Source: a virus (taxonomy: Duplodnaviria > Caudoviricetes). From it: 64,000 bases of DNA. The position numbers and the translations under genes were made by a program. Positions 486-27,866 of this stretch are shown in pieces. The notes under the pieces are model-generated. The model searched no databases, was not told where the DNA came from, and saw nothing but the letters and a program-made list of their open reading frames with translations. Each line of letters begins with the position of its first letter. Within the stretch, counting starts at the first letter, position 1. The stretch spans positions 1 through 64,000 of the IMG/VR virus record IMGVR_UViG_3300044259_000056, one strand, 5' to 3'.

Positions 486-1013
486 TTAAGACTTATAAAC
501 AAGTTTGCCCTGCAACAAAGCTTCTATAATCATGTTGAATTCTTTACATTTACACAAAGATTCAACATGAATTTCATAATTCTCCTTATTCTTACACGCT
601 TTAATAAAATCTTCCGCACCCTCTCTTGTTAGGTGTGAATTGACATATTCCCACTCCTCTTCAAAACCTACCACATTAAGATCTTCATCAAATCTTCCAA
701 TTACATAGATTTTATCATTATCATTTAAATTTAGGAAAACATCTCTACTCCATACCTGTGATAACTTGTCTAATTTAAGCTTATCTTGTTCATCTAAATT
801 ATTATAGAATTCCTGATAAGATCTAAAATAATAATCTGTGTCATCTAGGCTGTATATAAGTCTGTTGTCTGTATAATCAAAATCAATACCAGAAATTATC
901 CGTCTTTTCATTACATTGAAAATTGGATTAGCAGTGCAATGATCATCAACACCATCACCTATGTTATGATACTTAAGCCTTTTAATAAAGTCATTAAAAT
1001 AGTCTTCAGTCAT
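486..1013 (-). CDS. Conserved phage protein (resembles the domain found in Ead/Ea22-like proteins)
   Basis: 175 aa ORF with motifs HCTANPIF and WEYVNSHLTREGAEDFI; the family assignment is from recall. Confidence 0.45.
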   Translation of the reverse strand: MTEDYFNDFIKRLKYHNIGDGVDDHCTANPIFNVMKRRIISGIDFDYTDNRLIYSLDDTDYYFRSYQEFYNNLDEQDKLKLDKLSQVWSRDVFLNLNDNDKIYVIGRFDEDLNVVGFEEEWEYVNSHLTREGAEDFIKACKNKENYEIHVESLCKCKEFNMIIEALLQGKLVYKS

Positions 1014-1323
1014 TATTCATCCCACCTTTTAAAAATTTTTCTATAACATCCTCTGCTTCAGTCTTTGACTTAAATAAACTGAAATTAAGTTTCTCTAAAT
1101 CCTCTTCTGCATTCACTAAAGCCCCTTGAGCATAATTCAAATAATCAAATACTACAGAAAAATCATTCCTCTTGTCAACACGTTTTGTGCAGGAATTTAG
1201 TATATCACGCATATCTTCTATATCTAAAATGATGTTTGTTAACATTTCTTGAATAAAAGAAATATCTTCATTAATTGGGTCTTCATCTTCTTTTAAAATT
1301 TTATCCATATTATCATCCACCAT
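1006..1323 (-). CDS. Hypothetical protein
   Basis: 105 aa ORF overlapping both neighbours in a tightly packed operon. Confidence 0.7.
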   Translation of the reverse strand: MVDDNMDKILKEDEDPINEDISFIQEMLTNIILDIEDMRDILNSCTKRVDKRNDFSVVFDYLNYAQGALVNAEEDLEKLNFSLFKSKTEAEDVIEKFLKGGMNND

Positions 1324-1504
1324 TAAGAATTACAACAGGTTTCCCCTCTAATAAGACAAAATCATCTTCAGTATCTGCCAGAAAAATAAACTCTACTGTC
1401 CCAGATATTTCATGTTCTTGTTGATCATGATCACGAATAGCAACAATTGAATCTTGTGGCATCTTCTTTAATTTATTGATCACTTGTTTTACTGTCATAC
1501 CCAT
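1313..1504 (-). CDS. Hypothetical protein
   Basis: 63 aa ORF with SD GGAGG; MTVKQVINKLKKMPQD is a common small phage protein start. Confidence 0.7.
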   Translation of the reverse strand: MGMTVKQVINKLKKMPQDSIVAIRDHDQQEHEISGTVEFIFLADTEDDFVLLEGKPVVILNGG

Positions 1505-1505
1505 G

Positions 1506-1832
1506 TTACCCTCCTTTTGCCCATTCTATTGCTTTTAAAATAACATCACAATGACATGCAACCTCTTTGTTTGGTTGCTTACAAAAGCATACCAAATCTT
1601 TACCATCTAGGTCAAGCAGATCTTGAATAGTTATTTTACCGTTCTTTATTTGTTGCCACAACCAGACACGATAACGTTCTATGGTTGCACCGCGAGTTTC
1701 TTCCTTAGATAACTTGTATGGGTTTGCAAACTTAGATCCTTTAAGGCCTAAATGAGGCATAGCACGTCCCATATATTCAGCATTTGGAGGAATAACTTTA
1801 CCAATATGATAAAAATTCAATATTTTTGCCAT
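1506..1832 (-). CDS. DUF4326 family protein
   Basis: YMGR...KFANPY...YRVWL...L.GKDLVCFC...CHCDVI pattern. Confidence 0.8.
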   Translation of the reverse strand: MAKILNFYHIGKVIPPNAEYMGRAMPHLGLKGSKFANPYKLSKEETRGATIERYRVWLWQQIKNGKITIQDLLDLDGKDLVCFCKQPNKEVACHCDVILKAIEWAKGG

Positions 1833-1837
1833 ATAAT

Positions 1838-2185
1838 TTACTCAATTATTTTAAAAAGTTTACAATACTTTTTAATGTGAGAAATCAGTTCTTCCTCTGA
1901 AATATCAATACTAATATCTAATTCACTAACTTTCTCTATGTCCTCTGTTCTTACTGGATTATGGCATGTACTTTTCATTTTATATATTGTAACATTAGGC
2001 AGAAGAGGTAATAAATAATGTTTAACTAGTTGGTACAAACACTCATTAGAATCTGATGTATCATGCCAATTTATTACAACATCCTTGTAGTTAGTGGAGT
2101 ATAAGAAGTAATTAGATATAATTTCTCCGTCTTCAAAACCATATTTTGATGCTAGACTAGATGCATGTAATGTCAAATGATTCAT
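1838..2185 (-). CDS. Hypothetical protein (start revised to ATG 2185)
   Basis: SD GGAGG precedes MNHLTLHASSL; the upstream extension in the track overlaps the neighbouring gene. Confidence 0.65.
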   Translation of the reverse strand: MNHLTLHASSLASKYGFEDGEIISNYFLYSTNYKDVVINWHDTSDSNECLYQLVKHYLLPLLPNVTIYKMKSTCHNPVRTEDIEKVSELDISIDISEEELISHIKKYCKLFKIIE

Positions 2186-2189
2186 AAAA

Positions 2190-2402
2190 TTAAAGCCTCC
2201 TATAAGTCTTCTCTGATAACTTAATTTTAGTTTTTGGAGCCACAAATATTTGATCATTACAACAAACAACAAAATATTCTTTCTCACTTATAGTAGTATC
2301 ACAAACTAGAGAACCTTCTAAAGATTTCTCTAACCAAGAAAACCTACCATCAGTAATAAAATCACCAACACCTATACCATTGTGATACTCTTCATTTAAC
2401 AT
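2190..2402 (-). CDS. Hypothetical protein
   Basis: 70 aa ORF in operon context. Confidence 0.6.
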   Translation of the reverse strand: MLNEEYHNGIGVGDFITDGRFSWLEKSLEGSLVCDTTISEKEYFVVCCNDQIFVAPKTKIKLSEKTYRRL

Positions 2403-2506
2403 CTCATCCTCATTTTCAAATCAACTAGCAATTTAATCTTGAATTAAAACTTAACACCATTTATCTCTAATACAACGTCTTGTGGTGAAAATTCTTTTAC
2501 AGGCAT

Positions 2507-2740
2507 TTAACAGCTCTTACTCTCCCTTTCAATTATAAAATAACGCCGTTTGTTATCCTCTAAGTAATCATCATAAAAATAAGCCACTACTGATTCAGGC
2601 CAGATTTTTCCAGATGAAAAGTTATTAAACTGTACTTGAATAGGTTCCACAATCCTACAAACATGAGTTTCTAGATTCTTATTATCTACAAAGATTAAGA
2701 ACTCTTTCTGATTTACTTCTCTATGCTTTTTCATACTCAT
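2507..2740 (-). CDS. Hypothetical protein
   Basis: 77 aa ORF in operon context. Confidence 0.6.
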   Translation of the reverse strand: MSMKKHREVNQKEFLIFVDNKNLETHVCRIVEPIQVQFNNFSSGKIWPESVVAYFYDDYLEDNKRRYFIIERESKSC

Positions 2741-3026
2741 TATTATCCTTATTTTGTTTATAATTATAAATTAATCTTTCAATAATATCAGTAACATCAG
2801 GAGAGACATACACATGATAAGTTTTTCCATAAGAAATAATTGTTTCATGTTTATAAATAACCTTTTTGCATTCAGAAACTATACCTTGTGTTGTCATATC
2901 AAGATAAGGTTTTGGATAACCAGTTCTAACTTCAAAATAATCCATTGCATACTCTAAAGAAACAAACTTTCCATCCCAAGGTCCACCAATAAAAAGTACA
3001 CTTTCATAAGTCATAATAATCACCAA
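2721..3026 (-). CDS. Hypothetical protein
   Basis: 101 aa ORF with LFIGGPWDGK, a motif common in small phage proteins. Confidence 0.7.
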   Translation of the reverse strand: MVIIMTYESVLFIGGPWDGKFVSLEYAMDYFEVRTGYPKPYLDMTTQGIVSECKKVIYKHETIISYGKTYHVYVSPDVTDIIERLIYNYKQNKDNNEYEKA

Positions 3027-3034
3027 TAAGTTAA

Positions 3035-3220
3035 TTATTTACATGAATCTGCATTTAATTTTAGTAATAAAGCTACTGTTGCTAACCTACCAACCATATC
3101 ATCAGGAGATGGTTTAATTAGATCATTAAGTTCTTTAATAGTAAAACTATCAAGTAGTTCATCTAACTTATTCATAGGTTCCTCATATTCAAACTCATTG
3201 CGCATCTGTTCTGTATTCAT
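3035..3220 (-). CDS. Hypothetical protein (N-terminus shared with 45050-45307)
   Basis: SD GAGG, starts MNTEQMRNEF. Confidence 0.65.
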   Translation of the reverse strand: MNTEQMRNEFEYEEPMNKLDELLDSFTIKELNDLIKPSPDDMVGRLATVALLLKLNADSCK

Positions 3221-3400
3221 AATTTAACCTCACTGACATAATTCTCCTCAGAGTCAACCCACTTTTTCAAAACTGTGAATAGTTGCTTGGCTTGATCTTC
3301 TCCAACAAAAATCTGCCAATCACCCTGTCGGAGAGTTAAAAACTTTTCACCAGATATAACTTCAATTTCTGACATAGAATCATATTTCATTTCTTAGTCC

Positions 3401-3622
3401 TCATTGTTTTAATTCAATATGTGTTACTTCTTCTGGGTAATAAATATGATTTGAACCGTCTTCACCTACATAAAAACGGTAGTTGTTAACACGTCCTTGC
3501 ATCCAACCTATATTACCAGTAAAAATTGAACCATCCACAGTTTTAAAATAAAATGAGTCATAATATGCTGGATTACTATACAGAGAATCACAAGACTCTT
3601 GACTGCCACCAAATTTTACCAA
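3401..3622 (-). CDS. Hypothetical protein
   Basis: 73 aa ORF; start uncertain. Confidence 0.5.
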   Translation of the reverse strand: MVKFGGSQESCDSLYSNPAYYDSFYFKTVDGSIFTGNIGWMQGRVNNYRFYVGEDGSNHIYYPEEVTHIELKQ

Positions 3623-3658
3623 TTTGATTTCTTTTCATCAATAATCATCTTTCAACCC

Positions 3659-3877
3659 TTATATTTCAAGAATAACCTTATTGTTAAAATCACTGTCACA
3701 AAGATTATCATAACTCTTTAGTGAAAGCAAACCTCTTTTTACAAATAAATTCATAATATCTTGGTATACATCAAAAACAATCTCTTTGTCAACACACTCT
3801 GAGACAAGCAAAACAGTCTTACCAATGTTGCAATTGTGATAGACCTCTCTAAACACTTCTAAGCTCTTATTACTCAT
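3659..3877 (-). CDS. Hypothetical protein
   Basis: 72 aa ORF with SD GGAGG. Confidence 0.7.
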   Translation of the reverse strand: MSNKSLEVFREVYHNCNIGKTVLLVSECVDKEIVFDVYQDIMNLFVKRGLLSLKSYDNLCDSDFNNKVILEI

Positions 3878-8117: not shown

Positions 8118-8191
8118 ATCTAAAATAGTTGAAAAGATTTTGTATTTTGATAAAATTAGCAAATATGTGATAAAATAAAAGGAGGATAGAT

Positions 8192-8401
8192 ATGAAAGAT
8201 TTTACAAGTTATAAACCTAACAGCCATATGAGTGAAATTATAAAAGCTGGTCTATTGCACTACTGTAATAATCCTAATGTTTCTAAAGTAGTTGTTCATA
8301 ATGTTTCAGAATACAAAGATAAAACGGTTATTTCATTAGAAGTGTATGTCAAGAGTAATGGAAAAGAAGATATCATTTTCAAGAATCTGGAGATTAAATG
8401 A
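8192..8401 (+). CDS. Hypothetical protein
   Basis: 69 aa, strong SD GGAGG, overlaps the endolysin start. Confidence 0.7.
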   Translation: MKDFTSYKPNSHMSEIIKAGLLHYCNNPNVSKVVVHNVSEYKDKTVISLEVYVKSNGKEDIIFKNLEIK

Positions 8402-8883
8402 CAAATAATAGAAAAGCCTTCTTAGATATGTTGGCATGGAGTGAAGGAACATCAAATCACCCTATTACACGAAATAGTGGTTATGATGTTATTGTGACAG
8501 GTCTTGATGGTAAACCTGAGATTTTTACTGATTACAGCAACCACCCTTTTGCTAATGGTAGACCTGCTAAAGTCTTCAACAAACAAGGACAAAGTTCTAC
8601 AGCGTCAGGAAGATATCAACTGTTATACAGGTGGTATACACCCTATGCAAAAATGTTAGGCTTGAGGGATTTTTCACCAGCATCTCAGGATGCTATTGCT
8701 TTGCAGCAAATCAAAGAAAGAAAAGCTTTATCAGCAATAGATGTTGGAGATATTGTAACAGCAATTAACCTTTGTTCTAACATATGGGCATCATTGCCCG
8801 GTAATGACTATGGGCAAAGGCAGCATAACATAGATTACTTATTAGATGTCTATGTTAAATCTGGTGGTCAGTTAAAAAAGTAG
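8398..8883 (+). CDS. Endolysin, lambda R-type lytic transglycosylase
   Basis: RKAFLDMLAWSEGT, STASGRYQ, DFSPASQD, CSNIWASLPG. Confidence 0.95.
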   Translation: MTNNRKAFLDMLAWSEGTSNHPITRNSGYDVIVTGLDGKPEIFTDYSNHPFANGRPAKVFNKQGQSSTASGRYQLLYRWYTPYAKMLGLRDFSPASQDAIALQQIKERKALSAIDVGDIVTAINLCSNIWASLPGNDYGQRQHNIDYLLDVYVKSGGQLKK

Positions 8884-8890
8884 AGGTATC

Positions 8891-9241
8891 ATGTTAAGTA
8901 ATTATTATATGTTTTTTGTTGTTCTTGTTATTTTAGTAGTAGGTGTTTTATTTTATTTTATTAAATCACCTAAACACGAATTTATAGAGACAGCAAACAA
9001 ATGGCATAAGAAATTTAGTGTTTGGTTATCTGCAATAAATGCAGGTATTTTAAGTTTTACATCTGTCAATCCACAATCTATGATTAGTATTTGGAATGCT
9101 TTACCAGAAGACCTAAAAACAGTTTTGCCACAGAACTTTATTCAATTCATTTCAGTGTCGCTGATAGTGTTATCAGTTATATCAAGTCAGGTTAAACAAC
9201 CAAAACTGACAAAAGACACTACAAAAACTAGTGAAGGTTGA
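8891..9241 (+). CDS. Putative holin
   Basis: Hydrophobic segments and a charged C-terminus, located between endolysin and spanins. Confidence 0.7.
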   Translation: MLSNYYMFFVVLVILVVGVLFYFIKSPKHEFIETANKWHKKFSVWLSAINAGILSFTSVNPQSMISIWNALPEDLKTVLPQNFIQFISVSLIVLSVISSQVKQPKLTKDTTKTSEG

Positions 9242-10825: not shown

Positions 10826-12608
10826 ATGTCAGAAAGCATTATAATTGCCCCTCAACCGGGGCCACAAGAACAATTTGTAAACCTAAGAGACAATATTCCA
10901 TTAGTATTTTATGGGGGTGAAATAACCTGCTCGCCCCGTTGCACAGTAATGTGTAACTAGTTCCTATCTAATTCGGTGAAGTCTTAACACATAACGGTGA
11001 AGATAATACCGAGCCAAGCAGCTAAACATCTTTTAAGATATTTAGTGGGCGTGTGTGGAGGTCATTATGTAGTGGTCAAGTGACTGCGAAACGGTAGGCT
11101 CCTGTCAATCAGGATGAAGATATGACCCGACACTTCCAGAAATGGAAGAAAAGTTTAACGAACTTTATAACAGAAAGGCAGCAGGCGGCGGAAAAAGTTA
11201 CTCTATACTAATGGATGTTTTAAAATATGTAGATGATCCGTATTATTATGCAGTATTTTTTAGAAAGACAGTTAAACAAATAGAAAGGACGTTATGGCCT
11301 GAAGCAAAGGATATGTACGATCCATTTTTAAAAGAGCAATCTGGACCTAGAAAAGGTAAGTTTAAAGGAAAAGCCCAAATAAGGGAAAAAGATAAAGTTA
11401 TTATCTTCCCGTCAGGAGCAAAGGTTGAGTTTGCCTACCTAGATACAGATAGAGATGCAAAAGAGAATTTTCAAGGTGCTCAAATAAACGCAGCATATTT
11501 TGATGAATTTGGACATTTCTCAGAGTTTGTGTTCAACTATATAAGAACTCGTATGAGGTCAAAACCAACAGCAAAATATTTACCTTATATTCGTTGTACA
11601 TTAAACCCAGAACCAAACCATTTTGTTCTTAAATATTTAAGTAGATACATTGGAGAAGATGGGCTTCCAATAAAAGAATACTCTGGTAGACCTGCATACT
11701 TCTTAAATGTTAAAGGTGAGATAATAACTGCGTGGAGTGAAGAAGAGTTATTAAAACTTCACCCAGATAAAAAACCACGTATGTATACCTTTATTCCTTC
11801 TTCTTTGAGTGATAACAAAAAACTACTTGAAGTTAACCCTGAGTATGCAGATGATTTACTTGCAAATGACCCAGCAAATGCTGAATTACTTTTAAGGGGG
11901 AATTGGTTATATAAACCAGCAGCTAATGGTGTTTTTGAAAAATCAACTATAAAAGTTGTTGATAAAGTTCCTCTCGGAAGTAAGTATATTAGAGCATGGG
12001 ATAAAGCATCCTCTAAACCTGTTAGTGAAGGTGGTGATAGCAAACAGAAAGACCCAGACTATACAGCAAGTATCTTGTTTGCAAAAGATAAAGAAGGCTT
12101 TATTTATGTGATGGGGAATTATTATAGGGAACAAGACAATTCTCAAAGGTCTAGGTTTAGAGAAAGACCGGGAACAAGAGATACTTACATTGAACAGCAA
12201 GCATATCATGATGGGGATGATGTCACAATAATTCTACCATGTGACCCCGGACAGGCTGGTATTGTAGAGCTACAGGAAAGTTCAAAGAAATTACAATCAC
12301 TTGGTTTTACAGTTAAACCAGACCCATTGCCGGGTAACAAAAGTAAGAGAATAAGATTTGAACCTTTTTGCACAGCTTGTCATATTGGGAATGTCTTCTG
12401 GGTAAAATCTTCCTTTGATCCGAAAGTATGGGATTACTTAATAATGGAACTTGAAAACTTTGATGGTGATAAAAATAATGGATACCATGATGATTTTGTA
12501 GACTGTTTTTCAACAGCTTATGCATCTTGCTTAAAAGAGAAAGTACAAGAACCTGTTGCATTCCATGCAATATCTGCACCTACATTAAAATACAAAGCAA
12601 GAATTTAA
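10826..12608 (+). CDS. terL: Terminase large subunit, spliced (exons 10826-10918 and 11178-12608; 507 aa)
   Basis: Exon 1 MSESIIIAPQPGPQEQF...VFYGG joins AAGGGKSY to restore Walker A. Walker B AAYFDE and the nuclease motifs RAWDKA and HDDFVD are present. Confidence 0.92.
10919..11177 (+). mobile_element. Group I intron in terL (259 nt, no ORF)
   Basis: Exon ends in U and the intron in G. P1 GGGGU pairs with IGS GCCCC (10933-37); P10 CCUGCU pairs with AGCAGG; P4 UUCGGUG/UACCGAG; P7 GGUCAU (11060-65)/AUGACC (11122-27). Confidence 0.9.
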
Positions 12609-12694: not shown

Positions 12695-15230
12695 GTGACA
12701 GATGTTAAAACTAAGAGGACTTATAGAAAGAAATCTTCTTATTGGGAGGAGAGAAAATCTTCAGTAAGTCCTCAGTCTATAGAAAAAGCCAGTAACATGG
12801 ATATGTCTACCTCAAGGTTAAGGTTGGGTGAAATTGGTTCTACTGCACTTTCAACAATTAAGTTGTACGCAGATTGGAGAAAACCTTATGATCTAAAATG
12901 GCCTGAGTGCATTAGAACCTATAATGAAATGGAGTATGATGACGATGTAGCAACAGCATTGGATGCAAGTTACACATTCGTAGAAAGGGCATTTGTTGAA
13001 CCAGAAGTAGTTTATAATAAAGAATCAGAAGTCTCTATTGAGGCAGCAAGATTTTTAAAGTGGTGCCTTAATAACATGGACGACGGTATGACATTACGCT
13101 CTGCTGTTCGTTCAGCTATCACTTTTAAAAAGTATGGTTTTAGTGTCCTAGAGAAGTGTTATACTCAAGTTACTTCTGGTGAATATGCTGGGATGTATAA
13201 GTTGCAGAAGTTAGCAACTAGGCCACAAGAAACACTGAATAAAGCAAACCCATATGTGTATTCAGATGATGGCAGGACAGTTATTGGTATTATTCAGTCT
13301 ATAAATGCAGTATCATCTACAAATGCAATAATCCCTGCATCTATTGTTGGTGATAGGTTTTTACCAAGGAAAAAATTACTTATTTTTGGTTATAACTCCA
13401 CAGATTCAAATCCTTTCGGTGTTTCTCCTTTAGCTAGTATATATCAAGATTGGAAAGAAAAAGTTCTTATATCAGACTATGAAGTTGTTGGTGTTAGTAA
13501 GGACTTGGGTGGTAAACTAAGAGCTGCCTCCCTTTAATAAAACTTCCTTAACTGCTGGAAACCCCTAAAGCTTGATTGTTCATTTCATCTATGTTACATT
13601 AAGAATGAAATAAAACAATCGAGATGCAACAATGGGCAATCAGCAGCGAAGTTCTGCTGATCCTTGGATGAGGATCATATGAAGATAGAAATAGAAAGTA
13701 GTGGATATTATATAACAGATTCTGGAGAGGTTTATAGCAGACGTGGTAATAAACTATGTCCTGTTCTTAACCATAAAGGATATTTGACGGTTAAAATATT
13801 TTACGAAAAGGGTAAATATAAGACTAAGTTTGTTCATAGACTAGTTGCAGAAGCTTTTATTGAAAATCCTAATAATTTGGAAACAGTCAACCATAAAAAT
13901 GGTGTAAAAACAGATAATACTAAAGACAATTTAGAATGGATGAGTAGATTAGACAACACCAAACATGCAGCAAATGTATTACAGGCTCAAAAAGGTGACA
14001 AAGCAACTAATTTGACAATAAACTCTGATATAGCTAGGGAAATTTGTAAACTACTAGAGAAAGATATGCGTAATATTGATATATCTGTTCTATTAAATGT
14101 CCCCAAAAATATTGTTAGAGATATCAGAATAAGAAAAACTTGGACTCATTTATCCAAAGAATATAAGTTTTCTATTTCAAAACATGCAAGAAATGTTAAA
14201 ACTTCTAGCAGAAAATGTTCAACGACTATCGAAAGCATAGGTTAAATGAGAGATAAATAGATTATCTTTTATTATAACTAAAGAAGCAAGTAGAGTACAG
14301 CCAAGTGGTAGGTTGCCATAGTGGAATGGCTATGGTTATAAAACCCTTTAAATGGAAACAGGAAGCATCTCTTTGAGATGAAGATATAGTCTGATCTGCA
14401 TGGAAACATGCAGCAGCTTGAATAAAGCGGGGAGGGATTAACGAACCCTCCTGAACATTATGATGCCTGTCCTTGGTGTTCCAAAAGATATCATAAATAA
14501 AGCAGCAGCAAATCCCGGTGGCGAAGAAGCTAAATCCTTGTATGTATTAGAACAAAATTTAGCTAATCTTCATGCAGGGGAACAAGCATATATTATGCTA
14601 CCATCTGATCCATTTGATAATACACAAGTAAAAGAATATTCTATAGAATTTAAAGGAATTTCAGGTAGCGGTAAACAGTTTGATACTGGAAAACTTATAG
14701 AACGTAGAACTAAGGCTATTTATAATAGACTTGGTGCAGGATTCTTAATAACAGGGGATTCTGGGTCTGGTTCTTATGCATTAAGTGATAATAAACAAAC
14801 TTTCCATAGTCATACTATTGAACGTGATATTGACATTACTCTAGAAGTCCTTAATAAAGAACTAGTTCCACAGTTGCTAGCTTTGAATGGAATATATCTT
14901 GAGGATAAAGATATGCCAAAGATAAAAGCTGGAACTGTTGGTGATCCTGATGTAGAAGCTAATTCTAAGATGATTCAGCGTGTAGTTAGTGTTGGTGCTG
15001 TTCCAATGGTTCCAGAAGTTATTAATGAGTTTTTAGAAAAACTTGGATTAAGTTACAGGCTACCTGTTGATATTATCTCGGATGAGAAAGCTTATCAAGA
15101 CTTTGTTAGTAAATATCTTCCTGCAAATGTCTCAAGGGCAGGCGATGGGATGAGTAAACCGGGGAATGGTACATCAAACTCTGTAGCGTCAACAGATAAT
15201 TCATCTTTAAATTTGGATAATGCCTCTTGA
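12695..15230 (+). CDS. Portal protein, spliced (exons 12695-13513 and 14463-15230; 528 aa)
   Basis: Follows terL; RLRLGEIG at the N-terminus; junction KDLGG|MPVLGVP is in frame. Confidence 0.88.
13514..14462 (+). mobile_element. Group I intron (IA2-like) in portal gene, 949 nt, encoding an HNH endonuclease
   Basis: P1 GGUGGU pairs with IGS GCUGCC (13523-28); P4 UGCUGG/UCAGCA; P7 GACUA (14224-28)/UAGUC (14387-91); terminal G at 14462. Confidence 0.92.
13679..14245 (+). CDS. Intron-encoded HNH homing endonuclease (I-HmuI-like)
   Basis: HRLVAEAFIENPNNLETVNHKNGVKTDNTKDNLEW; SD GAGGA precedes ATG 13679; the 3' end runs into P7. Confidence 0.9.
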   Translation: MKIEIESSGYYITDSGEVYSRRGNKLCPVLNHKGYLTVKIFYEKGKYKTKFVHRLVAEAFIENPNNLETVNHKNGVKTDNTKDNLEWMSRLDNTKHAANVLQAQKGDKATNLTINSDIAREICKLLEKDMRNIDISVLLNVPKNIVRDIRIRKTWTHLSKEYKFSISKHARNVKTSSRKCSTTIESIG

Positions 15231-21392: not shown

Positions 21393-22775
21393 ATGGCAAC
21401 ATTTCGTGATAAGGTAGTTGATGTCACGTTAGTATATGGGAGTGGTATTACAGAAGTCGCTCGTTTTGACATTCCATTGATTTTAGCTACCCACAATAGT
21501 TCAGCAAATCTTGTAGATACTTTTACTTCAGCAGATGCAATTTTACAAGCAGGTTATACAGAGTCTTCTCCTGTCTATAAGATGGCAACTCTTTTGTTTA
21601 CAGGCCTAGCTGCACCAGAATATATTTTGGTCGGTAAAAGAACACTTACAGACTACTCAGTTACATTTACTGCTGTAAATAGTAGCATTTATACAGTAAC
21701 ACTAAAAGATGCATCAAGCTCTAAAACTTTCTCTTACACATCAGATTCAAGTGCTACTGTAGCAGAGATTGCAGCAGGATTGCAAGGACTTATTTCAGCA
21801 GACGGTGTTTGGAGTACTAAAATTACTGCAACAGTTGTTGGTTCTAATACATTAAATCTTGCACCTGTTAGTGGACAACATGTAGATGTTGCAGTAGGCA
21901 GTAATAGTGTCTTGTCTAGAAATACATCCCAGTCTGTTACTGATGCAATAACAGCTATTGCAACTGCCAATAATACTTTCTTTTGGGTGGTTAGTGATAG
22001 CCATACAAATGCTGATATTACTGCATTAGCGGCATATGCAGAAGCTCATGATAAAATTTATACCTTCTCTACCCAAGATGTTAATGTCAGAGATAAAGTT
22101 TCAGGTAACATTCTTGAAACATTAAATGGATTGTCATATAGAAATACTTGGTGTTCCCTTTGGAAATCAGATGCAGATATTTCATACCCAGAGGCTTCTG
22201 CTGTAGGTCAGATTGCAGCATCCCAGCCGGGAACCACAACTATGCACGGCAAGTCTTTAGTAGGTATTACACCAGAAAAATTAACAGCAACACAAGAGAG
22301 TAATATTGTCTCCCTAAATGGTAATATTTATCGTAGAGAATATGGAATTAATTTCTATCGTGATGGTAGAACAGTTAGCGGACAGTTTGTAGATGCAATT
22401 CATCAGGCACTTTATACAAAAGCAAAAATGGAAGAGTCTATTTATAATCTCTTTAGAGAACAAAGCCAACTCCTTTCAGGTGTCCGTAACACTCAAGCAG
22501 GCCGTGATCAACTTCGTCAAAGAATTACGGCTGATGTGATTCAACCTCAGATTTCAAATGGTTCTATTGTTAACGAGATTGATACCTCCTCTGATACTGG
22601 TTTGAAGAAAGACTTACGGCCTATGCTGACTATTCCATCTCGTGCTGATGCAACAACTGAGTCAGTTAATGAACGTCTTATTGATGGTATTGTTCTTGAG
22701 TATGTTTATGCAGGTTTCTTGCATTACGCGAAAGTTCGTATCAATGTTTTAACTGACCGTACAGCTACAGCATAA
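21393..22775 (+). CDS. Tail sheath protein (DUF3383-like)
   Basis: 460 aa, FDIPLIL, TTMHGKSLVGITP, YAGFLHY. Confidence 0.85.
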   Translation: MATFRDKVVDVTLVYGSGITEVARFDIPLILATHNSSANLVDTFTSADAILQAGYTESSPVYKMATLLFTGLAAPEYILVGKRTLTDYSVTFTAVNSSIYTVTLKDASSSKTFSYTSDSSATVAEIAAGLQGLISADGVWSTKITATVVGSNTLNLAPVSGQHVDVAVGSNSVLSRNTSQSVTDAITAIATANNTFFWVVSDSHTNADITALAAYAEAHDKIYTFSTQDVNVRDKVSGNILETLNGLSYRNTWCSLWKSDADISYPEASAVGQIAASQPGTTTMHGKSLVGITPEKLTATQESNIVSLNGNIYRREYGINFYRDGRTVSGQFVDAIHQALYTKAKMEESIYNLFREQSQLLSGVRNTQAGRDQLRQRITADVIQPQISNGSIVNEIDTSSDTGLKKDLRPMLTIPSRADATTESVNERLIDGIVLEYVYAGFLHYAKVRINVLTDRTATA

Positions 22776-22789
22776 TAGGAGTATAAAGA

Positions 22790-23260
22790 ATGGAACAAAT
22801 GTTAACAGGGTTTAGTGCATTTGACCCTAAAAATGTGCGAGTCTTACTTGGAGGTTATGAGCCTTCTGGTTATGCAACAGACAGTATGATTAACATTACT
22901 CTAGCAAATGACATTGTTCTCCCCTATGGTGGTTTAGATGGTGATGTCTCACTTGCTGTTAACCGTAACCATTTAGGAACAATGACAATTCATTTACAGA
23001 ATACAAGCCCAAGTAATAAAGTTTTAAGTACTTTCATTGCACAGAGTTATAGTACTGGTATTGTAGCTTTCCCAGTATTGTTCTCAGAACCAAGTTCAGG
23101 CAGTGAATTTATGACTATTGGTTGGGTGCAACAGCAACCTGAACATGCCATTACTAATCAGATTGGTACAATGCCTTGGGTTATTGGCCTGAAAGATGCA
23201 AGAGTTAGCTTTGGTACTACTGCTGCATCACTAAATGCCATTCAAGGTTTAGCACTTTAA
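22790..23260 (+). CDS. Tail tube protein
   Basis: FDPKNVRVLLGG, GTMTIHLQNTSPSN; follows the sheath. Confidence 0.82.
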   Translation: MEQMLTGFSAFDPKNVRVLLGGYEPSGYATDSMINITLANDIVLPYGGLDGDVSLAVNRNHLGTMTIHLQNTSPSNKVLSTFIAQSYSTGIVAFPVLFSEPSSGSEFMTIGWVQQQPEHAITNQIGTMPWVIGLKDARVSFGTTAASLNAIQGLAL

Positions 23261-23354: not shown

Positions 23355-23861
23355 ATGAGCGAACAGAATCAAAATATTATTTCCAATATTGCACAAAAAA
23401 TTGCCCCTGAGACTCGTTATAAAACTAAATATAAAGATATTCAAGGTATTGAGAAAGAGGCTGAGTTTCAGATCATGCATTTGCCGCCTTCTGTCATCTA
23501 TAAGAAACTTCCAAAGATTGGTCGTTTGATTGGTGTTCCAGCAGGCATGATTATGGCAGCAGCTAATGAAGGTTTTGCAGAAGCATTACCAGCAGCGATG
23601 TTGCAATTATTTAACACCTTTGATGAAGAAAATTTAGAACTGTTTATTAAAGAACTTTTAGATAGTGTTTATCTTCAGGGGACAAAAGTTACGGCAGACT
23701 TTGATGGGATTTTTATGAATGCCCCACACTTACCACTCCAACTTGCTGTAAAAGTCCTAGAGGTGGCTTATACCCCTTTTTTCAGCCTAGATTTCAAAGA
23801 AATGCTACCGACATTGGCGAAAATAAGTCAGGTTCAACAAATGAATTCAGCCCAGCTATAA
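23355..23861 (+). CDS. Tail assembly chaperone (G-like)
   Basis: Lies between tube and TMP; slippery site near the 3' end. Confidence 0.82.
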   Translation: MSEQNQNIISNIAQKIAPETRYKTKYKDIQGIEKEAEFQIMHLPPSVIYKKLPKIGRLIGVPAGMIMAAANEGFAEALPAAMLQLFNTFDEENLELFIKELLDSVYLQGTKVTADFDGIFMNAPHLPLQLAVKVLEVAYTPFFSLDFKEMLPTLAKISQVQQMNSAQL

Positions 23862-24125: not shown

Positions 24126-24157
24126 GCCCTGCCATTGCGCAGGGCATTTTTGTTTTT
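24126..24157 (+). terminator. Rho-independent terminator before TMP
   Basis: GCCCTGC-N6-GCAGGGC followed by a U-rich tract. Confidence 0.75.
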
Positions 24158-24193
24158 ATGGTTAGGTATCAACAAATCTCTACGGAGGGTGTA

Positions 24194-27100
24194 TTGGCAA
24201 TTAATTTTGATGCTGCCATTATTAAAAATAAAGTGGTATATACAACAGACCTCTCATCACTTAAAAAAGTAATGGCGGATATTAGGAAGGTTCAACAGTC
24301 AGCATCTAAATCTGTTTTAGCTTCCTCAACAATAAAACAATCAAGACAACAAGCTGAACAGACAAAACGTTGGGCATCAGAAACAATGGATGCACATGTT
24401 AAAGCTATGAACGAAGTAAGAAAATCAAAGGCATCTCAATTTCAGAAGTCATCTCAAGATTATTTCAATGACTTATTTGGCATAGGTAAGAAAACAAAAT
24501 CTGCCAGAGAGTCTGGTTATGCTTTTTTAGAACAGTTTCAGGCACAAGATGCCGCAGCAAATGAAATAAGGAAAAGGCAAAAAGAATCTTTGAGAAGACA
24601 GACAGCAGACCAGAAGAAAATAGATGAAGCTAATATTAAAGCAACAGAAGATAGACTAAGAAGAAAAGATGTAGCGAGTTCTAAGCAATCTTTTTTTGGT
24701 TTTGAATTAGGAAAAACAAGACTCGGTGTTGATGATATGCGAGCCTATACAACACAAATGAGAAACTTATCTCAGGAGTATGTATCAGGGAGTATGTCTG
24801 TCAGACAATATAATGAATCAACACGACAATTACTTTCTACTGCAAGACAACAGAGTAAAGAGTCATTAACACTTAAAGAAAGGTTAATGAGTATTCGTGG
24901 AGAAATGGTTCTCTTTGGTGTAACTGCTGGATTTGTTATTAAAGATGTTGTAGATACAGGAAAACAATTTCAACAATTAAATTTATCTTTTGATACAGCA
25001 TTTGGTAAAGATAAAGGCGAGGCAATGGATTTTGTTCGCTCAGAGGCTGATAGATTAGGTATGAGTGTCCTTGGTGTTAGTAAGAACTATGCTCGGTTAG
25101 CTTATGGTGCTAAGTTAATGGGCATGTCACAATCAGATGTTCAGATGGGATTCTCTGGGATATCTGAAGCAGCAACTGCTTGGGGTCTATCAAATGAGCA
25201 AGTTCAAGGGACATTTAAAGCATTTACAGATATGATCTCAAAAGGCACAGTCCAGTTAGAGGAGCTTAATGTTAGGTTCCTGAAACTTCTTTAATTGTCG
25301 GGGAAATCTTGAAAGGTATTGACTACTCTCTCTACATAGTGATATAGTAGAAAAACTCTTGGTAATGCAAGAGCTATAGTAAAAACGTCAATAATAGAGA
25401 TAATCCGCAGGTAAGGTTCTTTATTTCATAAAGAACAAACTTCAACGACTATCGAAAGCATAGGTTAAATGAGAGATAAATAGATTATCTTTTATTATAA
25501 CTAAAGAAGCAAGTAGAGTACAGCCAAGTGGTAGGTTGCCATAGTGGAATGGCTATGGTTATAAAACCCTTTAAATGGAAACAGGAAGCATCTCTTTGAG
25601 ATGAAGATATAGTCTGATCCTCATATGAGAATATGAGCAGACACAAGGAAGTGTCTGTTTGTGTTTAACGAACACAAAAAACATCGGTGAAAACAACAAC
25701 TCGGTTATACTATTAGCTGAGTATAAACTTCCTTAACTGCTGGAAACCCCTAAAGCTTGATTGTTTATTTTCTATATGTTATATTAAGAATGAAATAAAA
25801 CAATCGAGATGCAACAATGGGCAATCAGCAACTAAGCATCTCTCCAGAAAAGAAAGTAAGGAGAAAATATGGAATATGAAAATCTAAGCAAAAACTATAA
25901 AGTGACATCTTGTGGTTTAGTCTTTTCTTTAAGAAGAAATAAATATCTGAAGCAGTCAATATTTGGTGGGTATAATATAGTAAATATTGGCAAGAAGAAC
26001 TATTTTGTTCATAGACTAGTTGCTATAACTTATATACCAAATCCAAGTAATCTTCCTTGTGTTAATCATAAAGATGGAAATAAGCTAAATAACCATGTAG
26101 ATAACCTTGAGTGGTGCACAAGTGGATACAATCAATGTCATGCATATTTAACTGGACTAAAAAGGTTACCAAAAGGTGAAATGAATGGAAGAAGCGTTTT
26201 AACAGATTCTGAAGTTCTAAGTGTCTACGATGATCTTATGTCTGGGGCAAGAGTTAAAGATATTTCAGAGATCTATGGTGTAGGAAAAAGCACTATAATG
26301 TCTATTAAGAAAAAAGAGTCATGGCAGCACTTATTAAAAGATAAACCAGATATAAAAATAAAGAAAAAGACACAAACCTTATCTGAAAATACTGTTATAT
26401 GGATTTGTAAACAGTTGTCAGAAAATAAGACAGTTAAATGGATTTTTGATAACTGTCATAAGAATGTTACAATTAATCAAATACAAGATATAAAGAGAAG
26501 GCATTGTTTTTGTAAGATAAGTAAAGATTTCATATGGTGATGAAAGCTCAACGACTATCGAAAGCATAACTTAGGTCTTAGCCTGAGTGAGTAAGCAAGT
26601 AGAGTAGCGCCAAGTGGTAGGTGATTAAAGTGGAATGACTTTAATTATAAAACCCTTTAAAGCAAAATGGGAAGAGGTGTATAACAGATTATGCACTTAA
26701 GATATAGTCTGATCTGCATGGAAACATGCAGCAGCTTGAATAAAGCGGGGAGGGATTAACGAACCCTCCTGAACATTATGGATCGTATGCCGGATGCAAT
26801 GGCTGTGTTTGCTAAAGCATTAGACCCAGAGTCTTATGCAAAAAATCCACAGAAAGCCATTGAAAAAATGCAAGAGACTATTAAGAAAGGTAATCTCAAG
26901 TCTCTTGAAACATTACCTAAAGTATTTAAAGTATTCCATGAAATATATGGCCCACAAGCTGAAAAAGCTATGTATGGTGTCACTCAACAACAGAACAGAT
27001 TCAATAATACATTAAATGATTTCAAAAATATAATCTTTCAGTCTGGTTTAGCAAATGCAACAGTTAGGTTATTTGGTGCACTAAACAATTTCTTGAAAGG

Positions 27101-27866
27101 TTCTAAGCCCTTAGCTGCATTTTTAGGTGGTATTGCACAAGGTTTTGCAGATTTACTTTACTATGTAGAACTTGGTGAAGCATATTTCCTAGATTTTGCT
27201 GTTGCAATGGGTGTTTTGAATTATGAGACAGGAAAATGGAATAAAGATGTCCTTAATGCATTTGCTGAGGTTGGTGAAGCTGCTGGCATCCTTTTTGGTT
27301 TGAAATTAATTAAATGGTTAATGGGAACTGTTACAAGTTTTAATAAATTAGGTTCAACTGTTGGTAAGTTAGGGGCTAAGTTTGGTATAGCAAGTGGTTT
27401 TGCTGTGTCACTTTTAGGGGCTATTGAAGGTATTGCTAAATTTGCAGGAAAAACTTTGCTTATTGGAATTGCATTAGATTTCTTTTCTAAAATTGGTGAT
27501 CTTGAAAAAGAGGCTCAAGATAAGAATAAAAATCTTGGTGAGCTACTTTATGAGAAATCACAACAAAAAGAGAAAGAACGTATTGCAAGAGGTGGCGCGG
27601 ATGTAAGTAATTGGTGGGAAAATGTAAAAAGCTTTTTTACCCCGAATAGTGGTACTCTAACATCTCCATCCCCTTGGGAGAACACTATGTCCTCTAATTT
27701 TAATCCCTTCCTAATGGGCATGGCAGGTGTCTCTGCACCAAAAGAAGCTTATCAACCTCCTGTTGAAATTAATCTTAACTTTAAAGGGGAAGGTCTTAAA
27801 GACTTCTGGGATGTTCAGATGAGTAATCAAGCCTCGAGTCTATATGACTTCCAGTTAAATAAATAG
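24194..27866 (+). CDS. Tape measure protein, doubly spliced (exons 24194-25266, 25690-25705, 26781-27866; 724 aa)
   Basis: TTG start after GGAGG. Splicing restores the tape-measure motif SKGTVQLEEL-KQQLG-DRMPDA in one frame. Confidence 0.9.
25267..25689 (+). mobile_element. Group I intron TMP-1 (423 nt, no ORF)
   Basis: P1 GGAGCU pairs with IGS GGUUCC (25275-80); P7 GACUA (25447-51)/UAGUC (25610-14); P9 hairpins; terminal G at 25689. Confidence 0.9.
25690..25705 (+). other. 16-nt TMP micro-exon (A AAA CAA CAA CTC GGT)
   Basis: Completes the Leu codon CT|A and encodes KQQLG, the only gap in the TMP motif. Confidence 0.85.
25706..26780 (+). mobile_element. Group I intron TMP-2 (1075 nt) encoding an HNH endonuclease
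   Basis: P1 CUCGGU pairs with IGS GCUGAG (25716-21); P7 GACUA (26553-57)/UAGUC (26705-09); terminal G at 26780. Confidence 0.92.
25869..26540 (+). CDS. Intron-encoded HNH homing endonuclease with tandem C-terminal HTH-like repeats
   Basis: HRLVAITYIPNPSNLPCVNHKDGNKLNNHVDNLEW; SD AAGGAG. Confidence 0.92.
   Translation: MEYENLSKNYKVTSCGLVFSLRRNKYLKQSIFGGYNIVNIGKKNYFVHRLVAITYIPNPSNLPCVNHKDGNKLNNHVDNLEWCTSGYNQCHAYLTGLKRLPKGEMNGRSVLTDSEVLSVYDDLMSGARVKDISEIYGVGKSTIMSIKKKESWQHLLKDKPDIKIKKKTQTLSENTVIWICKQLSENKTVKWIFDNCHKNVTINQIQDIKRRHCFCKISKDFIW

Follow-up and report, generated by a model that had tools for sequence, protein, structure and literature searches.

One or two genes at the tape measure locus

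Between the tail assembly chaperone and the baseplate genes of the DNA analysed here, gene finders call two separate open reading frames (24158-25294 and 26778-27866) with an HNH endonuclease gene between them, raising the question of whether these frames are two genes or the halves of a single tape measure protein (TMP) gene. The window, by which we mean the whole stretch of DNA that was analysed, covers the initial 64 kb of an IMG/VR virus record that is 74 kb long and has an estimated completeness of about half. Its source is an uncultured ICP1-like myovirus, a relative of Vibrio phage ICP1, and its TerL is 66% identical to that of ICP1. The locus is surrounded by a myovirus tail module, in which the sheath (21393-22775), tube (22790-23260) and tail assembly chaperone (23355-23861) genes lie upstream and the baseplate genes, including the hub, lie downstream. 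Between the chaperone genes and the TMP gene, at 24127-24157, a G+C-rich inverted repeat with a T run behind it (GCCCTGCCATTGCGCAGGGCATTTTTGTTTTT) abuts the first possible TMP start.

The product of the first frame matches Pfam TMP_3 (PF20155; E 1e-11, 45.3 bits against a cut-off of 41). This match spans positions 2-110 of the 192 in the profile and breaks off where exon 1 ends. A Pfam search with the product of the second frame (26778-27866) returned no match of its own. From the analysis described below, we consider it highly probable that the TMP gene carries two related group I introns of the IA2 type, which would be spliced to yield one mRNA for a TMP of 724-736 aa. The predicted features, all on the plus strand, are as follows.

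24158-25266, plus strand: tape measure exon 1; start at ATG 24158 or, more likely, at TTG 24194 behind GGAGG
25261-25280, plus strand: predicted P1 hairpin of intron 1; internal guide sequence pairing with exon GGAGCU, including the U25266.G25275 pair
25267-25689, plus strand: predicted group I intron 1; ORF-less, 423 nt; IA2-like, P7.1/P7.2 present, P2 absent
25690-25705, plus strand: predicted micro-exon AAAACAACAACTCGGT; 16 nt, the third base of a Leu codon followed by KQQLG
25700-25721, plus strand: predicted P1 hairpin of intron 2; formed by GCUGAG and CUCGGU, the final 6 nt of the micro-exon
25706-26780, plus strand: predicted group I intron 2; length 1075 nt, P6 loop containing an endonuclease ORF
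25869-26540, plus strand: predicted HNH homing endonuclease gene; encodes 223 aa behind a separate AAGGAG ribosome-binding site
26781-27866, plus strand: tape measure exon 3; 361 aa and stop

A single frame is restored through a 16-nt micro-exon

Exon 1 ends with GAG GAG CT at 25266, leaving two bases of a leucine codon, and exon 3 starts with GAT CGT ATG CCG at 26781. When the segments 24158-25266, 25690-25705 and 26781-27866 are joined, a single open frame of 736 aa is obtained from ATG 24158. An earlier note on this DNA had given a spliced frame of 724 aa; that frame is indeed open, and the figure corresponds to a start at TTG 24194, which lies 5 nt after GGAGG. The intron coordinates it had proposed (25267-25689 and 25706-26780, with a 16-nt exon between) all hold on the sequence, and the boundaries are unique and cannot slide because the bases flanking each junction differ. 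Omission of the micro-exon shifts the frame, as had been argued, and a stop is reached after 15 codons. RNA spliced according to this model is expected to carry CTAAAACAACAACTCGGTGATCGT across both junctions.

Comparison with uninterrupted homologues places both junctions within conserved protein sequence. In BLASTP searches the joined product aligned with nine uninterrupted TMP_3 proteins without a gap over either junction, bearing out the claim that splicing would restore a TMP motif: EEL-KQQLG-DRMP aligns with EELRGQLGERLP, and the wider stretch SKGTVQLEELKQQLGDRMP with SKGTVSAEELRGQLGERLP. The E values of the joined product descend to 6e-32, compared with 2.4e-12 for exon 1 alone, and on the exon 3 side the homologue alignment carries on for 100-170 residues beyond the junction. 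Virus and metagenome collections yielded six loci, including some overlapping pieces of the same contigs, that encode the identical EELKQQLGDRMP without interruption, and the only matches to a degenerate pattern for the joined peptide were distant tape measure genes (31-39% identity). Close relatives of exon 1 were not found among viral contigs, nor were close relatives of exon 3 among metagenome contigs.

Both introns display the core elements of a group I ribozyme

Intron 1 is preceded by an exon U, has U as its first base and ends with G (25689). Its P1 helix, GGAGCUU/AGGUUCC, forms 7/7 pairs including U25266.G25275, and a coordinate check found all of the helices P1, P3, P4, P5, P6/P6a, P7, P8, P9, P9.1 and P9.2 to be fully paired. 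The P1 of intron 2, CUCGGUUA/UAGCUGAG, forms 8/8 pairs including U25705.G25716; the intron ends with G26780, and its helices comprise the set of intron 1 plus P7.1 and P7.2, every one of those listed being fully paired by coordinate and hand check. In both introns P7 is GACUA/UAGUC. The four landmarks cited in the earlier note (U at the 5' splice site, a guide with a U-G pair, this P7 and a terminal G) are therefore confirmed at each intron. The further proposal that the micro-exon serves as a pairing partner for both introns stood in part, since its role in the P1 of intron 2 is clear but a P10 pairing for intron 1 is at best weak; the P10 pairings predicted for the two introns extend over only 3-4 bp and are offset by 1-4 nt from register.

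The Rfam scan that had been suggested for the locus upheld intron 1 and fell short for intron 2. Intron 1 scores 60.9 bits with RF00028 at 25257-25637, covering the full model (1-253) and passing the gathering score of 50. A local search recognised the 3' half of intron 2 only (26563-26731; 34.2 bits, E 1e-6), below the gathering score, since the ribozyme match is divided by the 672-nt ORF lying in the P6 loop; the alignment printed for this intron also misplaces P1.

The two cores are approximately 80% identical to one another, and paired differences between them are found in P3, P4, P5, P7.2, P8, P9 and P9.2. For P7, P9 and P9.2, the 3' halves of six family members (both TMP introns of the window, three ICP1 introns and one from Yersinia phage phiR1-37) were aligned, and 13 of the 20 predicted pairs are kept via two-sided changes. 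In a relative from one of the sequencing runs (X4), an intron occupies the same 5' site as intron 1 and the exon change G25264A converts a G.U pair of P1 to A-U. Two hairpins, P7.1 and P7.2, are predicted between P7 and the 3' strand of P3 in both introns, an extension by which we take both to belong to subgroup IA2. One further locus carrying the intron core motif gave no RF00028 match at E 0.001.

The ORF within intron 2 (25869-26540) is predicted to encode an I-HmuI-like HNH homing endonuclease. Its product matches Pfam HNH_3 (PF13392; E 5.8e-6, 26.3 bits against a cut-off of 24.8), PHROG 59 (E 5.7e-45) and PDB entry 1U3E (E 6.7e-10), which was deposited as 'HNH homing endonuclease' and which we take to be I-HmuI, a nicking enzyme. 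The AAGGAG ahead of the endonuclease gene may pair with an upstream UCUCC in a weak predicted hairpin (25841-25864, -5.3 kcal/mol), and this hairpin may limit translation from the unspliced RNA.

A different account of the locus is that one or both introns are inactive and that the TMP is made as two polypeptides, the first running from exon 1 to TAA 25292-25294 and the second starting at ATG 26778. This would fit the calling of the flanking frames as separate genes, and the stop and the ATG are indeed in frame, the one lying beyond the 5' splice site of intron 1 and the other just ahead of the 3' splice site of intron 2. However, no Shine-Dalgarno sequence precedes ATG 26778, and the most conserved motif would be interrupted halfway by the break between the two polypeptides. 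Comparison of the window with ICP1 shows the 16-nt piece to be conserved as protein and with its frame preserved, the ribozyme cores are intact with compensatory changes present, and ICP1 shares the stop and ATG features yet splices (PMC10448857). We regard separate polypeptides as very unlikely.

DNA from other assemblies and the tandem layout

Four runs were compared, all as DNA contigs. In two of them a 165-nt unitig (25590-25754) runs from the last part of intron 1 through the micro-exon into intron 2 at a depth of 45-56, equal to that of the flanking genome; the contig may itself derive from these two runs, and they are not independent of it. Elsewhere the unitigs break at the intron cores, where depth is 2-5 times higher, and a 179-nt stretch of intron 1 (25441-25619) is repeated exactly in an intron of the portal gene (14218-14396, 100% identical). 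Both features would fit an assembly chimera formed via repeated intron cores as the origin of the tandem layout, an explanation to which we give almost no chance. Against it stand the spanning unitig at genome depth, subject to the reservation about its origin, the recurrence of the same order in ICP1 and the fact that the micro-exon is exactly the coding piece that would otherwise be missing.

A 251-nt contig from a different study, approximately 90% identical to the window, links 25242 to 26787 with exactly 46 letters between them. The number backs its assignment as a candidate intronless allele that keeps the micro-exon (46 = 24+16+6), an assignment made by length only and at a depth of 2.6.

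Further introns in the window and in other phages

A third group I intron in the window splits the portal gene at 13514-14462 and contains its own HNH ORF (13664-14245). Portal exon 1 (12695-13513) matches positions 24-242 of phrog_113, and exon 2 (from 14463) matches positions 244-423. The portal intron is a mosaic of its TMP counterparts, sharing 94% identity with the 5' part of TMP intron 2 over 13540-13651 and 100% with TMP intron 1 over 14218-14396. A probable small group I intron without an ORF lies in terL at 10909-11177 (RF00028 38.2 bits, under the cut-off; local E 2.7e-8), where it follows a short first exon from ATG 10827; the match of the called terL ORF to its PHROG profile begins no earlier than position 174.

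In Yersinia phage phiR1-37 (NC_016163.1, about 110577-110910), a segment of ~330 nt with 84% identity to the TMP intron 2 core is found between the 'DNA polymerase' CDSs g167 and g164, and is annotated as the tiny ORFs g165/g166. Judged by its sequence, it seems to be an unannotated, ORF-less polymerase intron of the same family. At three other loci (L027, L033 and L037) an intron 5' end in which the guide GCUGAG pairs with CUCGGU, as it does in TMP intron 2, follows the context ...RPHNSYLNSLG, and these may represent the same intron family at the same 6-nt target in another gene.

Clusters of introns were observed in capsid genes as well. On the minus strand of IMGVR_UViG_3300001525_000065, five RF00028 matches of 66-91 bits, all above the gathering score, fall within 2.9 kb (locus positions 969-3800); these introns lie downstream of the prohead protease gene and, by BLAST, interrupt a major capsid protein gene, one exon of which is only ~72 nt. 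In IMGVR_UViG_3300021256_000432 two RF00028 introns (83.6 and 66.6 bits) are separated by ~200 nt (locus 8164-8977) and followed by an HNH ORF. They are placed between the prohead protease and the C-terminal part of the major head protein, making this a multi-intron capsid gene.

A model for splicing and homing

The two introns are taken to have inserted 16 nt apart inside the most conserved TMP_3 motif, each folding its own P1 with the exon bases that precede it. Guanosine would attack after U25266 and U25705, the terminal Gs 25689 and 26780 would mark the 3' splice sites, and two splicing reactions would unite exon 1, the micro-exon and exon 3. Intron 1 would probably be removed first and cotranscriptionally, given the 1075-nt length of intron 2, which would then face an ordinary long 5' exon. 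In mixed infections the endonuclease of intron 2 would nick or cut intronless alleles, and repair would be expected to copy both introns together because they are only 16 bp apart. The pair may be seen as a pile-up of selfish elements at a conserved target rather than as a regulatory device.

The similarity of the two cores allows for hybrid folding, which could cause occasional exon skipping and yield a dead-end, frameshifted product. In a stronger form of this idea, the whole region would act as one composite intron, excised from the 5' site of intron 1 to the 3' site of intron 2 through a hybrid core, with skipping as the main or a regulated outcome and a truncated protein as its product. 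The P7 strands of the two introns are identical and their P3 strands could cross-pair (CUUCUU with GGGAAG); transcripts lacking an exon are, moreover, reported for the three similar introns of an ORF in Staphylococcus phage Twort (PMC3073962). But the skipped product is frameshifted, with its stop after 15 codons, and the micro-exon is conserved both in ICP1 and in the intronless homologues, from which it follows that skipping can only be a by-product. A twintron or single composite intron was rejected on these grounds of frame and homology, and we hold it to be extremely improbable. Two successive splicing reactions remain the preferred reading.

Comparison with known systems

Group I introns have been described in tape measure genes before. 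TMP-IVS1, IVS2 and IVS3 occur in prophages of the Bacillus cereus group (Tourasse & Kolsto 2008, PMC2504315) and resemble the present introns in belonging to IA1/IA2, in having a P1 adapted to neighbouring sites and in targeting conserved stretches. They differ in residing in Gram-positive prophages with siphovirus TMPs of >1200 aa, and no strain with back-to-back introns around a micro-exon is mentioned in the text (PMC2504315). The Twort case is alike in that several related introns lie in one late gene, and different in gene and host (PMC3073962). Organellar exons of under about 4 codons regularly occur between introns and are missed by gene finders (PMC10352661); such mini-exons between mitochondrial group I/II introns are organellar and often depend on protein-assisted splicing, whereas the present one is in a phage. 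A literature search combining micro-exon or mini-exon with phage group I introns found nothing relevant.

The closest parallel is provided by ICP1 itself, in which RNA-seq, RT-PCR and Sanger sequencing established a TMP transcript comprising four exons plus three introns (Barth, Dunham & Seed 2023, PMC10448857). An HNH-3 endonuclease gene usually occupies the middle intron, but in isolate M4 introns one and three carry the endonuclease and the middle one is empty (PMC10448857). The text of that paper gives '4 exons, 3 introns' without mention of exon lengths (PMC10448857). RF00028 marks the ICP1 TMP locus four times, and our own reading of its DNA gives the following exon model.

ICP1 TMP exon 1: ends ...GTC ATG GCT, then a 330-nt intron
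ICP1 TMP exon 2: GAAGAACT, 8 nt, then a 1112-nt intron with the HNH gene
ICP1 TMP exon 3: AAAAGGTCAACTGGGT, 16 nt, then a 328-nt intron
ICP1 TMP exon 4: starts GAA GTA ATG CC

This model produces an open frame of 677 aa that reads SKNQVMAEELKGQLGEVMP and aligns with the window product without a gap over the motif, which places ICP1 introns 2 and 3 at the exact positions of window introns 1 and 2. In both phages these introns follow GARGARCU and CUNGGU, respectively, and the 16-nt exon encodes (L)K-x-QLG. By our reading, then, the two 16-nt exons are homologous and the arrangement is orthologous. The guide sequences match their own exons, with CUGGGU/GCUCAG in ICP1 intron 3 compared with CUCGGU/GCUGAG in window intron 2. 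Both phages also have an HNH_3-type endonuclease in one TMP intron and, in the window probably, a terL intron behind a short first exon, the splicing of ICP1 terL being likewise documented (PMC10448857). The earlier note knew of no TMP micro-exon as short as this one, an impression of rarity that gives way to the ICP1 DNA, which as read here contains the same 16-nt exon plus one of 8 nt, and to the description of tape measure introns in 2008 (PMC2504315).

There are also clear differences. ICP1 has a further intron 8 nt upstream, at which point the window is continuous (GTC CAG TTA GAG GAG CT). In most ICP1 isolates the endonuclease lies in the intron before the 16-nt exon, whereas in the window it lies in the intron after it, as in M4. 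The TMPs of the two phages are only 26% identical, their introns share only short core blocks, and the portal intron of the window has no RF00028 counterpart in ICP1. A narrow pattern for an intron following CUNGGU recovered ICP1 and no other tape measure case, the remaining matches being in unrelated contexts. It is conceivable, though we think it rather unlikely, that the introns and the 16-nt exon make up an old, conserved homing unit of ICP1-like phages, in which a single endonuclease gene shifts from one intron to its neighbour and propagates the two by co-conversion, intron copies exchange blocks within the genome, and occasional skipping through hybrid cores yields a truncated TMP fragment of some use.

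The layout is an ordinary new example of a known arrangement, splicing of a three-intron TMP gene having already been shown by experiment in ICP1. For annotation, it illustrates how gene finders split an essential tail gene into two 'unlinked' fragments and miss a 16-nt exon. Cholera phages are not alone in having the ICP1 intron cluster, as it persists at the same pair of codon positions in a relative whose TMP is only 26% identical. Endonuclease occupancy differs between the neighbouring introns, and introns within one genome recombine with each other. The locus opens no new question, and lends support to the published view of how introns and endonucleases turn over at conserved sites.
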